Shown here: in pieces, positions 1 to 14,807 of the stretch
Layout of the letters: every line of letters starts with the position of its first letter
How positions within the stretch are numbered: the stretch's first letter is position 1
Assembly (NCBI GenBank): GCA_963770895.1
Contig: CAVYRF010000001.1
Location: forward strand, 1,568,001-1,632,000
From: an uncultured Acidobacteriota bacterium
Lineage (GTDB): Bacteria > Acidobacteriota > Thermoanaerobaculia > Multivoradales > UBA5704
Direction: 5' to 3'
Length of the DNA: 64,000 bases
The notes under the pieces: generated by a model
The model's database searches: none
What the model was told of the DNA's origin: nothing
What the model saw: the letters and a program-made list of their open reading frames with translations, nothing else
Translations under genes and position numbers: made by a program

Positions 1-262
1 TCCAACGCTCGGCCTCGCCAAGCAGCCAGTCGTCCTGCCGCAGGTAGCCGGCGTACCAGTGGGCATAGGCGATGCCCGCGGTGCCATAGGCAAGGTTGGC
101 GTAGAAACCTTGCTGACGGCGGACGATATCGGACCACGACAGGTCCGCCATCGAATCCAGGTAGTCGTCGAGATAGGCGTGAAAGATCTCGGCTGTTGAC
201 GTTGCGGCTGGACCGCCGCCGGAAGCGGTCGGCGCGTACGGAGCATCCGACGGCGGTCTCAC
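1..262 (-). CDS. N-terminal part of a LanC-like (lanthionine synthetase C family) protein, runs off the window edge
   Basis: Hand translation from GTG at 262: VRPPSDAP...EIFHAYLDDYLDSMADLSWSDIVRRQQGFYANLAYGTAGIAYAHWYAGYLRQDDWLLGEAERW. The 'NLAYGTAGIA' stretch resembles LanC GxxG repeats. Starts 9 nt after the stop of the precursor peptide. Not in the ORF track. Confidence 0.55.
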   Translation of the reverse strand, partial: MRPPSDAPYAPTASGGGPAATSTAEIFHAYLDDYLDSMADLSWSDIVRRQQGFYANLAYGTAGIAYAHWYAGYLRQDDWLLGEAERW

Positions 263-271
263 GGCACCGGC

Positions 272-10796: not shown

Positions 10797-11777
10797 GTGA
10801 CGAACATGCCTACGAGATCATCGGTGTCAGGCGACATGGCGCGGCGGCGGCTCGCCGTCGGCGTCCTTGTGGCGGTCGCCGCGGGGGCCGGGCTGGCTGC
10901 GTTCGCCAGCTCGGGCGGCGCGGGTATCGTGCCCACCAAGCGGCAGACAATCCAGCTCACGTATCTGGGGAACGCGGGGTGGCAGATCGAGGATGGTCAC
11001 GGCGTGGTGCTCGTCGATCCGTACATCTCTCAGTTCAAGGTGCCGCGCGCCAGCTTCGCAAGCTCGTTTGACGAGGAGGATGAGATTGTGGAGCCCGACA
11101 CGGCGGGCATCGATGCGCGGATTCATCGGGCGGACTACATTCTCATCACCCACGGCCACCCCGATCACATGCTGGACGCGCCGTATATTGCCAGGAAGAC
11201 GGGCGCGGTGATCGTTGGCAGTGGGACCGCGGCGAATCTCGCTCGGGCTTATGACGTGCCCGACGAGAAGCTGATTACCGTGCGGGGAGGGGAAGACTAC
11301 GAGTTCGGCGGGTTCTCGTTGCGGGTGATCCCCAGCCTGCATTCCCCGCTCCTTCAGAAGCGCTACTACAACAGGCCGTGGGCGGGTGTGGCGCCGCGCG
11401 GGCTCAAGGCGCCGCTGCATGCCTCGGCGTTCGTCGAAGGGGGCAGCTTTGCCTATCTGCTGCGCATGGGCGGCCATACGATGCTCATCATGGGAACGAT
11501 GAATTTCATCGAGCGCGAGATGGACGGACTGCGGCCCGACATCGCCCTGGTCGGCGCCGGTGCCTCGCGGAAGGAAAGCTACGACTATGCCGGTCGGCTG
11601 ATGCGATCCCTCGGCCATCCCGCCGTGGTCCTCCCCACGCACTGGGACTCCTGGGTTACGGCGTCCGACGAGAAGGCACGGCAAGGCGCTCTGGAATTCG
11701 CCGCCGAGATCAAGGCTGCCTCGCCCGGGACGCGCGTTCTCATTCCTGACTACTTCAAGCCGATCGCGCTGCCCTGA
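10797..11777 (+). CDS. Exported MBL-fold metallo-hydrolase (UlaG-like)
   Basis: RRR plus hydrophobic signal; YLGNAGW; LVDPY; metal motif THGHPDH; PSLHS; PTHWD. Confidence 0.88.
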   Translation: MTNMPTRSSVSGDMARRRLAVGVLVAVAAGAGLAAFASSGGAGIVPTKRQTIQLTYLGNAGWQIEDGHGVVLVDPYISQFKVPRASFASSFDEEDEIVEPDTAGIDARIHRADYILITHGHPDHMLDAPYIARKTGAVIVGSGTAANLARAYDVPDEKLITVRGGEDYEFGGFSLRVIPSLHSPLLQKRYYNRPWAGVAPRGLKAPLHASAFVEGGSFAYLLRMGGHTMLIMGTMNFIEREMDGLRPDIALVGAGASRKESYDYAGRLMRSLGHPAVVLPTHWDSWVTASDEKARQGALEFAAEIKAASPGTRVLIPDYFKPIALP

Positions 11778-11905
11778 TGCCGGCGGCGATGTGCGGGTGG
11801 GGTCGCCTTGGCTCGTGCTCAAGGTCAACCAACCCCTCTCCCGAAGGAAAGGGGCTCGAGGCAGGACGGTGTGGAGAAAAGGGGTGCCGCAGCGAAGCCC
11901 TTCGA

Positions 11906-12058
11906 CTAGGGGGGGTGGACAAAGACGGTATTGGTCATGTGCGAGACCGGTGAAATTGGATACCCCACTGCGAGGCCCTCGATCTCGCGTGATCCCAGGG
12001 GCAGCAGGGTCTCTTTGGCGATCCTCAGCCTCTTCATCTCCGTCTTCTGCTTTTTCAT
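11906..12058 (-). CDS. Cys-free RiPP precursor peptide with class I lanthipeptide-type leader (50 aa; not in ORF track)
   Basis: Hand translation: MKKQKTEMKRLRIAKETLLPLGSREIEGLAVGYPISPVSHMTNTVFVHPP*. Leader LRIAKETLLPL fits LxLxKx5L and aligns with the 272-463 precursor. AAGGAG RBS at 12067-12072. Lies 111 nt downstream of the LanC-like gene on the same strand. Confidence 0.8.
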   Translation of the reverse strand: MKKQKTEMKRLRIAKETLLPLGSREIEGLAVGYPISPVSHMTNTVFVHPP

Positions 12059-12169
12059 CGTCGGTGCTCCTTTCCCCGGCCGTTCTTGTCGGTCAGGAAT
12101 GAACGTTCACCTAAAGATGAAGGTGCGCGAGGCCACCAAATAGCGCACGACGTTCTCGCGGGATGCGTT

Positions 12170-13435
12170 TCAGGAGAGGGGCTCCAGGCGGAGAGGCGAG
12201 AGCAGCAGGATCCGGTCCCACCGGGGATCGACGCCGGTCGCGGCGCCCAGCAGGACCAGGCCGATGCCGCTGGCGCCTCCCAGGAAGCCCAGGTCCGCAC
12301 CGCCCGGTCGGCCCGCTGGATCCACCGGCGAGAACCCGCCGACGCCCGTCCCGGGCACTCGCATCTCCAGGAGGCGAAGGATCTCCCGGCGGGCAGCGCG
12401 CCGGAACACCGGCCGGCCCGTCTGCTGGTAGAGGCGCGCGAAGATCTGCGCGTAGCCCGCCGGTCCGAAGCCGATGCCGGGATGGCGCTCCGGCACCTCG
12501 TCCATGCGCGCGGCCTCCTGTGTGGCCACCAAAAGGGCTTCCTCCAGGAGGTCCGCATCTCCAAGCGCCCGGGCGGCGTGGGCAAGCGCCGCCGCAATGC
12601 CCGCATCCGCGTAGGCCCACCCCGGGTCGAGGCCTTGAGCTACCGGCGGCCGGCCGGGAGCGACCGCCCAGGGAAAGGCGCGCGGTCCGCCGTCCGGCAG
12701 GCGCTGCCGGCGCAGCCAGTGGACCGTGTCGAGCAGCAGCGGGCGCGCCGTGTCGGTTTCGATCCCCTCCTCCGTAGCGCTGGCCAGGAAGGCGATCACG
12801 CCCGCGACGCCGTGCGCGAGCCCCAGGTTGAAATGGCCCTCGGGGCACCAGCTCCGGTTTCCGCTCTGCGGCGGGCTATGCCAGGCAAGACCCTCGGCGG
12901 CGATCTGCTGGCGTGCCGCCAACCGCTCGACGGCCCTCGTTACCAGCGGGCGGCTTGCGGATTCGAAGCCGTACGCCCCCAGCCCGAGGAGACCATCGAG
13001 CAGATCGTACGGCTCAGCGATGTCCCCGGGGCCCTGCAGATACCCCAGCAACTCTTCGTCGAGGGCCTGCGTGGCGTCCGCGGCGCCCTCGACCCCGAGC
13101 ACCCTCGCCGCGTGATGGAGGATCCAGGCAAGTCCGGCGGCGCCTCGATGGAGGCACATCGGCAGGCGCTCGCCGCCGCCGGCGAGGTCGATGGCGGCGT
13201 CGAGCAGGGTCTGCGCCGCCAGGGCGTCGCCGGTCTCGCCCGTGGCTCGCGCCAGGTAGGTCAGGCACAGAGCTGAGGATGCCAGGTCCCAGACCGATGC
13301 GGAGGCCTGCGCCGGCAGTAGGAGCCGGCGGAGATCGCCGGCGATCGCGCCGACCGCCGCCAGGGCGCGCCGGCGATCCTGCGGGGCGAGACAAGGGCGC
13401 CACGGGAGCGACTCGCGAAACCGCCGCGCAGCCAC
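12170..13435 (-). CDS. LanC-like protein lacking the Zn-binding Cys/Cys/His ligands
   Basis: LanC motifs YDLLDGLLG, NLGLAHGVAGV and C-terminal LGFLGGASGIGLVLL...WDRILLLS are present. WCYG is replaced by WAYA (12608-12619) and CHG by GFG (12464-12472). Confidence 0.88.
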   Translation of the reverse strand: MAARRFRESLPWRPCLAPQDRRRALAAVGAIAGDLRRLLLPAQASASVWDLASSALCLTYLARATGETGDALAAQTLLDAAIDLAGGGERLPMCLHRGAAGLAWILHHAARVLGVEGAADATQALDEELLGYLQGPGDIAEPYDLLDGLLGLGAYGFESASRPLVTRAVERLAARQQIAAEGLAWHSPPQSGNRSWCPEGHFNLGLAHGVAGVIAFLASATEEGIETDTARPLLLDTVHWLRRQRLPDGGPRAFPWAVAPGRPPVAQGLDPGWAYADAGIAAALAHAARALGDADLLEEALLVATQEAARMDEVPERHPGIGFGPAGYAQIFARLYQQTGRPVFRRAARREILRLLEMRVPGTGVGGFSPVDPAGRPGGADLGFLGGASGIGLVLLGAATGVDPRWDRILLLSPLRLEPLS

Positions 13436-13439
13436 GTCT

Positions 13440-13514
13440 TTATGTGGCCTCCGCGACCGGCCGCCTACCCACCTGGACGTGTTGCCTCTGTCTCCTGATC
13501 TGCAGCGTCTTCAT
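13440..13514 (-). CDS. Putative 24-aa basic peptide immediately upstream of the LanC-like gene
   Basis: ATG at 13514 with GGAGG 6 nt upstream; MKTLQIRRQRQHVQVGRRPVAEAT*; stop lies 4 nt before the LanC GTG. Confidence 0.35.
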   Translation of the reverse strand: MKTLQIRRQRQHVQVGRRPVAEAT

Positions 13515-13904
13515 CTCTGGCCTCCGTCGTGGGCAGTCCTGGCTCGCCGTTCAGGTCAGCGCGCAGGTGGCGGTGCGGCAGTCGCGCCCGGCGCAGGTGG
13601 CGGCGCGGCGGGTGGAGCGGCGCGCAGGGACGGCCCCGTAGACCGCCGCCGTTCGCCAGTCCTTATACGTGACGGCGGCATCCGGCGTCACTGCGGCGGC
13701 GCGCGGGGCCTCAGGCGCGGACGGCGCCTGGGCCAAGGTGGCGACGCTCGGAACCTGACCCAGGGAGCCGGCCGAAAAGAGCCTCGGCCATGCCATACGG
13801 ACGTGGTAGCATTCCATGTGAAGCTATTGCAACAATAATCCGCACGGACAGCTCCTGCGCCATTTGAACGCCCCCGCCGGCGCGGAAACCACCAAGGAGA
13901 TCTC

Positions 13905-14807
13905 ATGCCGACCTTGATCCTGGCTGCGGCCCTGTGGGCGTTGCTGGCCACGCCCGCGCCGCTGCCGGTTGCCGAGGATTTCGTCGTGCGCTTCGATCGG
14001 CCCCTGGTTGCCGGGGCCGAAATGCGGGTGACGGAAACCCTGACCAACTCCTCGACGGCCTCGGTGAGCGGCATCGACATGCCGGCGCCCACCGAGCAGC
14101 GCGCGGTTCTCCACCTGGACGCCGCCGTCAAGGTCCTGGAAGTCGGCCCCAAGGGGACGCCGCGGCACGCGACGGTGACCGTGCGCCAGCTGACCCGCGA
14201 GGATCGAGGCACAACCACCGAGTTGCTCGCGCCCGGCTTGACCGTCGATGCCCACCTGGAAAATGGCAAGAAGGTCTTTACCCTCGACGGCAAACCGCTC
14301 GATGGCGATGCGAAGGCGGTCCTCGCGGGCGCCGGCATCGTGACCACCGAGGGACCAACCGATGACGAGATCATGGGCTCCGGCCAGCGCCGCCGCATCG
14401 GCGACAGCTGGCCGGTCAAGACCGAGGCAGTGGCGCGGCTTCTGGGCGACACCTTTCCGGTGCGGCCGGAGAGCTTCTCAGGGATGGTCACCCTCGCCGC
14501 CAAAGCCGAGATCCGGCACATCCCTTGCCTCGAATACCACGCCAAGATCGAAGGCAAGGATTTCCGCTTTCCCGCCGACGGCCTCCCCGCCGGCTTCGAA
14601 GCCGGGCAGGCGAACCTGGTGGCCACGCTCTCGGAGCTTGTGCCCCTCGACCTGGCAGCCCCGGTACCGAGCGTCGACTACTCCCTGAACCTGCATGTTG
14701 CCTTTCCGGGCACCCTGGCCGGCAAGAAGGTGACCATGACCCTGGACATGCGCGTCAAAAGCCACGCCGAGACCCTGCCGCTCATCCCCCTCCCGCCGTC
14801 AAGCTGA
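13905..14807 (+). CDS. Secreted hypothetical protein (beta-rich)
   Basis: AAGGAG RBS; signal peptide MPTLILAAALWALLA; GC3-biased coding frame; no recognisable catalytic motif. Confidence 0.75.
   Translation: MPTLILAAALWALLATPAPLPVAEDFVVRFDRPLVAGAEMRVTETLTNSSTASVSGIDMPAPTEQRAVLHLDAAVKVLEVGPKGTPRHATVTVRQLTREDRGTTTELLAPGLTVDAHLENGKKVFTLDGKPLDGDAKAVLAGAGIVTTEGPTDDEIMGSGQRRRIGDSWPVKTEAVARLLGDTFPVRPESFSGMVTLAAKAEIRHIPCLEYHAKIEGKDFRFPADGLPAGFEAGQANLVATLSELVPLDLAAPVPSVDYSLNLHVAFPGTLAGKKVTMTLDMRVKSHAETLPLIPLPPSS

Follow-up and report, generated by a model that had tools for sequence, protein, structure and literature searches.

The window analysed here is a stretch of 64,000 nt from an uncultured Acidobacteriota bacterium of soil (assembly GCA_963770895.1, contig CAVYRF010000001.1, positions 1,568,001 to 1,632,000). 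Its positions 11906 to 13435 hold a gene for a stand-alone LanC-like protein that lacks the zinc ligands of its family and, directly downstream, a gene for a cysteine-free, precursor-type peptide. We propose that the LanC-like protein may be a neo-functionalised cyclase that adds histidine to dehydroalanine or dehydrobutyrine (Dha/Dhb) made by a LanB dehydratase in trans; this reading, whose chemistry is predicted from sequence, is given a probability of roughly 45%. With the same strength, a little short of even odds, we regard the two genes as a conserved cassette for a peptide made on the ribosome and modified after translation (RiPP), in which a zinc-less stand-alone LanC descendant and its dedicated precursor are kept together in a small lineage of the Thermoanaerobaculia. 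Put forward a shade more tentatively is the fuller version, in which a metal-free descendant of class I LanC would have exchanged the Cys thiolate for the His imidazole as nucleophile and, with LanB acting in trans, would yield a bicyclic histidinoalanine/histidinobutyrine peptide.

The enzyme gene was delimited by its open reading frame (ORF) and translation.

12170..13435, reverse strand: stand-alone LanC-like gene, 421 aa, GTG start, no internal stop

The protein matched the Pfam profile PF05147 (LANC_like) with an E-value of 5e-26 and 91.6 bits (cut-off 23.2) over residues 53-411, covering profile positions 13-350 of 350, and it is thus a member of this superfamily; it stayed far under the cut-offs of the models for fused class II, III and IV synthetases. 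The G+C fraction at third codon positions was 0.85 in the enzyme frame and 0.78 in the peptide frame. The active-site residues were mapped by HMMER alignment against two references, the LanC-like protein 8byk_A, whose structure is solved, and chain 2g02_A of NisC, for which chain index plus 6 equals the literature NisC numbering, an offset that holds for all seven residues checked.

A274, equivalent to NisC Cys284 (zinc ligand): replaced (alignments to 8byk_A and 2g02_A)
G322, equivalent to NisC Cys330 (zinc ligand): replaced (alignments to 8byk_A and 2g02_A)
F323, equivalent to NisC His331 (zinc ligand): replaced (alignments to 8byk_A and 2g02_A)
D270, equivalent to NisC Arg280: replaced, with a charge reversal from Arg to Asp (alignment to 2g02_A)
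H208 (in GLAHG), equivalent to NisC His212: kept (alignment to 2g02_A)
D144, equivalent to NisC Asp141: kept (alignment to 2g02_A)
Y275, equivalent to NisC Tyr285: kept (alignment to 2g02_A)

The positions of the zinc triad that marks the zinc-dependent cyclases of the NisC type are therefore occupied by Ala274/Gly322/Phe323. An earlier note on this DNA had claimed that all three zinc ligands are replaced in an intact ORF and that two of the three changes need two base changes each. Both alignments bear out the first point, to which the change from Arg280 to D270 is an addition. The codons at A274, G322, F323 and D270 are GCC, GGC, TTC and GAC, and three of these four changes represent two base substitutions each; counted from TGC, TGC and CAC, the three ligand positions require 2, 1 and 2 base changes, in agreement with the second point. 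The residues for acid/base and enolate handling in NisC-type LanC (His212/Asp141/Tyr285) are present as H208, D144 and Y275 and are invariant in the clade described below. According to PMC9934072, His212 of NisC protonates the enolate and Tyr285 stabilises the enolate oxygen, and PMC10604976 gives Asp141 and His212 as conserved and functionally essential in LanC. From the residue equivalences and these published roles, the half of the active site that deals with the dehydro amino acid is retained and its thiol-activating half is replaced. As far as residue equivalence reaches, the metal-and-thiolate half of the LanC site was shown to be swapped for a new invariant set, in which Asp stands at the position of Arg280 and the ligand positions hold Ala, Gly and an aromatic residue.

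The peptide gene and its parts were located as follows.

11906..12058, reverse strand: precursor-type peptide gene, 50 aa plus stop, Cys-free, with leader 1-32 and core 33-50
12067..12072, reverse strand: ribosome-binding site (RBS) AAGGAG, 8 nt ahead of the peptide ATG
11963..12058, reverse strand: leader region, 32 aa, with the motif K-[KR]-L-x-I-x-K-E-T-L-L-P-L and an invariant, double-Gly-like Gly at its end
11909..11962, reverse strand: core region of 18 aa, Cys-free, carrying a tandem pair of [ST]xxxH motifs

This gene lies 111 nt downstream of the LanC-like gene. The 50-aa peptide with a strong RBS and a Cys-free core was found as it had been described (2 Ser, 2 Thr, 2 His, 1 Tyr and 0 Cys in the core), and an AAGGAG/GGAGG element precedes the peptide in all 8 orthologous genes compared. 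The leader, which had been assigned to an LxLxKx5L type, fits LxIxKx5L in the window. With NF038153, the NCBIfam model for class I lanthipeptide leaders (lant_leader_L1a, cut-off 22 bits), orthologues at the loci L011 (30.2), L016 (31.7) and L014 (34.6) and an orphan peptide, L092 (28.5), scored above the cut-off. The copy in the window (13.6), the peptide of a paralogous cassette (21.8) and that of L019 (12.6) scored below the cut-off. The positions K9, E16, T17, L18, L19, L21, G32 and H40 were invariant in the peptide alignment. The leader-only proportions of nonsynonymous and synonymous differences (pN/pS, 0.04-0.29 against 0.04-0.29) come from too few sites to inform.

The association of the two genes was then followed across 8 loci from species genomes, 5 from metagenomes and the 2 copies in the window's own genome (G000, with the contigs C1 and C2), and the locus L018, cut by a contig end, was excluded. 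A homologous peptide gene adjoined the Zn-less LanC gene in all 15 readable loci, downstream of it in 13 and upstream in 2 (L012 and L019), and the adjacent peptide was Cys-free in 14 of the 15. Some of the loci are near-duplicates, and the adjacent peptides comprise 13 distinct sequences. The earlier note had suggested looking for Cys-free peptides with Ser/Thr/His beside Zn-less homologues, and these were present at 14/15 loci, with the Zn-less homologues forming one clade. None of the 6 window neighbour genes was matched in the loci of 11 relatives.

The same coupling was seen within G000, which has 14 LANC_like matches in 13 genes. The triad positions of these are Cys/Cys/His in 8, Cys/Cys/Cys in 2, zinc-less in one 1035-aa frame, and Ala/Gly/aromatic in 2 stand-alone proteins, of which the second belongs to a paralogous cassette.

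G000 C2:2707677..2709035: paralogous Zn-less LanC gene, whose downstream neighbour encodes a Cys-free peptide of 49 aa bearing the same leader

The two paralogous cassettes group with different orthologues each. A six-frame scan of G000 returned 56 small ORFs with the leader motif, which carry at least 2 Cys in 52 cases, 1 Cys in 2 and 0 Cys in 2; the two Cys-free peptides are precisely those that adjoin the two Zn-less LanC genes. Since the pair recurs as a paralogous pair in the same genome and at 13 further loci, and since the tally of the 56 peptides singles out the same two, the pairing is more than chance. The enzyme and the peptide were thus shown to be inherited, duplicated and retained together. 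A canonical control was also present in G000.

G000 C1:1011293-1012987: canonical control cassette (L105), with a Cys/Cys/His LanC gene at C1:1011596..1012987 and a 52-aa, 4-Cys peptide directly upstream

No LanB was seen near L105, and the leader of its peptide is related. This control indicates that cassettes of a cyclase plus its substrate occur in both versions and that the metal site and the Cys go together.

To place the protein among its relatives, 5.8 billion proteins were searched, and 41 matches were obtained at E up to 1e-5. In the alignment of the query and these 41, 35 of the 42 rows have Ala, Gly, and Phe, Tyr or His at the zinc positions; the Zn-less homologues range to 47% identity with the query, and the enzyme of L019 is the most distant (44%). 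Five matches at or below 41% identity are Cys/Cys/His, and of the remaining two rows, one is truncated and the other (P0040, a metagenome homologue) is multiply frameshifted. In P0040, well-matching and garbled stretches alternate; either the copy has several frameshifts or its contig is rich in errors. When 1.84 billion cluster representatives were searched with a profile, 7612 relatives were found. Among the best 150 of these 7612 representatives (50%-identity clusters), 2 were Zn-less, 147 Cys/Cys/His and 1 truncated, and the score stepped from 443 to 303 bits between the Zn-less and the Cys/Cys/His groups. In a 77-row tree, built by a quick method without bootstrap, the 13 Zn-less rows grouped together (SH-aLRT 100, stem 0.63), and their group is nested among LanCs of the class I type. 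Going by source names and record titles, the clade belongs to the Thermoanaerobaculia, Acidobacteriota. It is rare: in a sample of 301 genomes of the class, the own genome counted, 3 carry it, and among 81 loci checked, the stand-alone triad-less proteins were members of this clade only.

When 30 Zn-less sequences were compared with the 147 canonical ones, A274, G322 and D270 were found in 100% of the clade, against C in 100%, C in 100% and R in 92% of the canonical set, while H208, D144, Y275 and W273 are kept in both. Clade-specific invariant residues stand at 270, 274, 322, 315, 319, 321 and 325, and further clade changes at 107, 201, 211, 252, 256 and 307. All of the nine Zn-less LanC coding sequences compared are intact, and their Nei-Gojobori ratios of nonsynonymous to synonymous substitution rates (dN/dS) range from 0.38 to 0.70 over 36 pairs, mostly about 0.42. 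The neutral decay that the earlier note had named as speaking against its reading was thus absent. A full-length LanB, used as a control between G000 and the genome G218, gave 0.418, and for this pair of genomes the Zn-less LanC gave 0.437; because the control matches, such a value is nothing unusual among the RiPP enzymes of a lineage so rich in G+C. Judged by tree and alignment, the Zn-less LanC is a conserved clade of single origin and not a broken copy. We therefore consider it highly improbable that a decaying LanC paralogue lies here beside a chance small ORF without any function. The frameshifts of P0040 and the decay of a second, upstream peptide copy in the window would suit such a case, but the nine coding sequences are intact with dN/dS below 1, the replacements are invariant down to 44-47% identity, the RBS, leader and motif of the peptide are conserved in 15/15 loci, and sequence of relatives occurs in contigs of two RNA libraries, which is a weak hint in the same direction.

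A conserved protein may still have no catalytic role. LanC proteins bind leaders and work in complexes with LanB. A pseudoenzyme with the LanC fold could serve as a binder of leader or core, a chaperone, an adaptor to LanB or a transporter, or a regulator, in which case the peptide would be modified by other enzymes or would be a linear (dehydrated) product. The replacement of all three metal ligands and the lack of any other enzyme linked to the cassette agree with this possibility, and a LanM-like protein without zinc ligands has been reported in quorum sensing (PMC10301443). We hold it to be unlikely, since H208, D144 and Y275 are invariant in 30/30 clade members, since new invariant residues at the former metal site, such as the Arg-to-Asp change at 270, fit a reshaped catalytic pocket better, and since the [ST]xxxH pairs stay conserved while the rest of the core changes fast, which speaks for chemistry at these residues.

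These pairs were analysed in 14 distinct peptides, comprising 12 adjacent ones and 2 orphans of the same ETLLPL subfamily.

G000 C1:652841-652984, reverse strand: orphan ETLLPL-subfamily peptide (L093), two [ST]xxxH motifs and a single Cys in a C-P-T context
G000 C2:5020187-5020345, reverse strand: orphan ETLLPL-subfamily peptide (L092), two [ST]xxxH motifs and a single Cys in a C-P-T context

No LanC-like gene was seen near either orphan, and no obvious RiPP enzyme appeared in a listing of ORFs alone, made without a family search. The motif [ST]xxxH occurred 25 times in the 14 cores, compared with 4.38±1.88 in composition-preserving shuffles, of which 0/5000 reached 25, and 12 of the 14 cores carry it twice. 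One core His is invariant in all 14 peptides, with Ser/Thr at -4 in 12 and at -3 in the other 2; a second His follows 8 residues past it in 10 of the 14. Altogether 27 of the 29 core His residues have Ser/Thr at -4 or -3, and His makes up 29 of 294 core residues, compared with 2.3% in the 52 Cys-rich cores of G000. In those Cys-rich cores, [ST]xxxH was not enriched (7 against 6.1±2.1); they show a Ser/Thr-to-Cys spacing signal of their own at i+5 (89 against 49.6±6.2). In the usual layout of lanthionine rings, the nucleophile lies a few residues C-terminal to the dehydratable residue.

No Tyr, Lys, Asp/Glu or N-terminal residue was conserved across the 14 cores. The earlier note had listed His imidazole, the N-terminal amine, Tyr or an external small molecule as potential nucleophiles. 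From this list His is favoured, because one His is invariant and has Ser/Thr 3-4 residues ahead of it; Tyr and the N-terminus, lacking conservation, lose ground. An active enzyme with another reaction, using a different peptide nucleophile, an external small molecule or the unmodified peptide as substrate, is rated still less probable than a pseudoenzyme; the conserved His would then be a recognition or metal-binding residue of the product. Such an enzyme would explain the retained electrophile-handling residues, eukaryotic LanCL enzymes do carry out an intermolecular addition of glutathione to Dha/Dhb (PMC9934072), and the second His at +8 in 10/14 cores could complete a metal-binding pair, noursin being a peptide that binds copper. 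Nevertheless, LanCL keeps the zinc ligands for thiol activation, which are replaced here, and His with its Ser/Thr 3-4 residues ahead is the sole potential nucleophile conserved in the 14 cores.

In the proposed histidine cyclisation, a class I LanB whose gene lies elsewhere in the genome would dehydrate the Ser/Thr of each [ST]xxxH motif, and this LanB may also serve about 50 dispersed Cys-rich precursors that have the leader motif in common. The Zn-less LanC would bind the leader and catalyse a Michael-type addition of the His imidazole to Dha/Dhb, with D270 perhaps orienting or deprotonating the imidazole in place of the metal, and with H208 and Y275 acting as in canonical LanC (NisC). The product would contain two small histidinoalanine or histidinobutyrine rings and might bind metal, and a C39-peptidase transporter encoded in the genome would cut off its double-Gly-type leader; G000 contains 9 Peptidase_C39 matches.

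The RiPP enzyme genes of G000 comprise 2 LanB, 2 LanM-size and 13 LanC-like genes. Both LanB matches are on contig C2, other than the contig of the cassette, and one is full-length.

G000 C2:5178249-5183584 (L094 4406-9584): full-length LanB (PF04738 plus PF14028; L094 6054..9584, reverse strand) and a canonical LanC, tail to tail

No recognisable precursor gene was found around this LanB/LanC pair, which is consistent with its action in trans. LanB was present in 10/10 cassette-bearing genomes. As a discriminating test, this co-occurrence was rejected, because the baseline shows LanB to be common without the cassette (below); it is permissive evidence only. The approximately 56 small ORFs mentioned above (e.g., C1:1011293-1011451 and C2:4304002-4304220, the locus L106) have the leader K-[KR]-L-x-L-x-R-E-T-L-x-x-L, ending near Gly-Gly, and the 52 Cys-rich ones are scattered far from LanB, LanM and LanC. 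With its dispersed precursors and few dehydratases, G000 seems to present the prochlorosin arrangement in a class I/II form.

The interpretation in the earlier note, that the loss of zinc ligands and of substrate Cys is concerted, is partly supported: the bioinformatic tests that it proposed all came out favourable, whereas several observations weigh against it and against the histidine chemistry proposed here. The first group concerns the enzyme. A dN/dS near 0.4 indicates only moderate constraint, one of the 41 database homologues (P0040) is frameshifted, and the arrangement of the clade-specific residues along one putative pocket derives from alignment to NisC alone. Moreover, zinc-ligand loss alone implies no new nucleophile, because the zinc-less class III domains still use Cys (PMC10604976). 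The second group concerns the surroundings. No dehydratase, protease or transporter was linked to the cassette in any locus, and LanB was also found in 7/8 other genomes of the same family and in 34/81 of the order, with or without the cassette. The third group concerns the peptides. Since they are kin, the shuffle test reflects conservation of a pattern in fast-diverging cores and not its independent recurrence; the peptide of L015 carries only one His, which lacks the exact [ST]xxxH spacing because its Thr stands at -3; the two orphans carry one Cys each; and the peptide at L019, the most distant locus, has one Cys in its core. In addition, L011, L095 and L096 have 2-3 Cys-rich leader-type precursors within 1.2 kb upstream of the Zn-less LanC.

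L095 1260-2061; L096 1925-2462; L011 3004-3733: Cys-rich precursor clusters, all of one lineage

One Cys-rich precursor of that lineage ends 39 nt upstream of the Zn-less LanC on the same strand. The Cys of L019 and these upstream precursors are what would be expected of a zinc-independent thioether cyclase that had converged with the class III domains, which form lanthionine and labionin without zinc (PMC10604976), and whose substrates were Cys-containing peptides, either such neighbouring precursors or the one-Cys members of the subfamily. This alternative is judged quite improbable, because the sole partner kept in 15/15 loci is the ETLLPL-type peptide, Cys-free in 14; Cys-rich precursors are absent from the neighbourhood in both the window and the paralogous locus; the tree sets the clade within class-I-type LanCs and not with the kinase-fused forms; and its Ala/Gly/aromatic replacements differ from the Ser/Phe/Asp of ThurKC (PMC10604976).

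The histidine-adding LanC proposed here was compared with known systems. It resembles the class I LanC of the NisC/SpaC type (PF05147) in fold family, stand-alone size, the equivalents of His212/Asp141/Tyr285 and its nesting in the tree; the leaders of orthologues pass NF038153, and G000 holds a canonical LanC plus precursor cassette of the same layout. It differs from class I systems in that the zinc triad and Arg280 are replaced, the core is Cys-free (as in 14/15 adjacent peptides) where a class I lanthipeptide cluster has core Cys, and the LanB that adjoins such a cluster was not seen in the flanks of the relatives' loci. The protein does not belong to the class III LanKC, being a 421-aa stand-alone protein nested in the class I type, with 32.6 bits for NF038151 against a cut-off of 575. 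With class III LanKC, such as ThurKC, it has in common a LanC-like fold without zinc triad (PMC10604976). In the description of that source, ThurKC has Ser/Phe/Asp at the three zinc positions, compared with Ala/Gly/aromatic in the clade, where the loss is an independent one, and LanKC is fused to a lyase and a kinase and acts on SxxSx(2-5)C cores (PMC10604976). A LanCL-type glutathione transferase retains the zinc triad, for activation of an external thiol (PMC9934072), and here the triad is replaced.

The closest chemical parallel in the comparison is NorKC (LanKC-Hbt), the class III enzyme of noursin, in which a cross-link from the Thr8-derived Dhb to His11 is reported as dependent on enzyme and leader and not spontaneous (PMC10206099). 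The two are alike in a cyclase domain of the zinc-less type and in His being added, here putatively, to a dehydro residue a few positions N-terminal to it. The spacing is Thr8/His11 in noursin compared with [ST]-x3-H, or [ST]-x2-H in 2/14 cores, here, where the pattern is a signature in the peptide sequences. NorKC is described as a three-domain lyase-kinase-cyclase that needs a Cys labionin ring first (PMC10206099); here we find a 421-aa stand-alone protein of class I ancestry and a Cys-free peptide with usually two His motifs.

In the full-text literature searched, no stand-alone zinc-less LanC with a Cys-free precursor was described; the datasets of PMC7268733 and PMC11251773 could hold related loci. 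A 2024 survey (PMC11251773) lists cyclases with an undefined triad near LanB or DUF4135, with 14 ('B-Unk') and 47 ('D-Unk') predicted peptides, and these are likewise non-class-III cyclase domains without a Cys/Cys/His or Cys/Cys/Cys triad. As presented there, it differs from the present work in that Cys-containing peptides near a dehydratase were chosen and no mechanism was given, and its datasets might include loci of this kind. One mining pipeline is described as dropping Cys-less ORFs and filing dehydratase-less clusters as 'unclassified' (Walker et al. 2020, PMC7268733). Because such mining rules require core Cys and an adjacent dehydratase, loci like this cassette would be discarded by design (PMC7268733).

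The remaining features around the cassette in the window are as follows.

11831..11856, reverse strand: G+C-rich hairpin with an 11-bp stem and a UUCG loop, about 50 nt after the peptide stop (fold prediction)
13440..13514, reverse strand: 24-codon ORF with a GGAGG site, 4 nt ahead of the LanC start (DNA alignment with L012)
10797..11777: metallo-beta-lactamase-fold hydrolase gene (convergent)
13905..14807: gene for an uncharacterised 300-aa protein (divergent)

Neither of the two flanking genes was found near any relative. The hairpin recurs 3' of the orthologous peptide gene in L013 and, despite lacking a T-tract, is likely where the transcription unit ends. A scan of 11600..14000 for consensus promoters and terminators found none, the hairpin being missed because it lacks the T-tract, and Rfam gave no match in 11000..14500 at E up to 0.1. 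The ORF at 13440..13514 has a common start and the first approximately 30 bases in common with the upstream peptide gene of L012; by this alignment, it is a decayed, truncated homologue of that intact ETLLPL-type gene, and in the ancestral cassette LanC may have been flanked by two peptide genes, one to either side. An 88-aa ORF at 13551..13817 (reverse strand), whose last 16 residues are Cys/Thr-rich, was set aside as probably spurious, a chance ORF of G+C-rich DNA, having neither leader motif nor family match. Another stand-alone LanC-like gene runs across the window start (window 1-271, reverse strand; G000 C1:1567039-1568271; 411-aa frame, PF05147 E 9e-11), and its triad positions are Cys/Cys/Cys and not Cys/Cys/His in the paralogue alignment. 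Contigs of relatives, about 88-93% alike, were found in two RNA libraries, and those of run X19 extend over the peptide gene and the spacer and over the greater part of LanC; they are a weak hint of transcription, since contigs are no proof and DNA carry-over is possible.

If the proposal is true, the LanC fold would have been re-tooled in nature for ring formation by aza-Michael addition in a small, separable enzyme, through a short, clearly defined set of active-site changes (the two Cys to Ala and Gly, the His to an aromatic residue, the Arg to Asp), and the residues that decide the nucleophile choice of LanC would become testable. Peptide engineers would gain a compact catalyst for His cross-links, a kind of bond that chemical synthesis makes only with difficulty (PMC10206099). 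The peptide would represent a new product type for class I RiPPs, a 'histidine analogue' of a lanthipeptide. For the organism, it would mean that dispersed cassettes of a cyclase plus its substrate can plug into one common dehydratase. The architecture of its genome, with one full-length LanB, many paralogues of LanC and some 56 scattered precursors, is of interest in itself as a class I counterpart of the prochlorosin arrangement.

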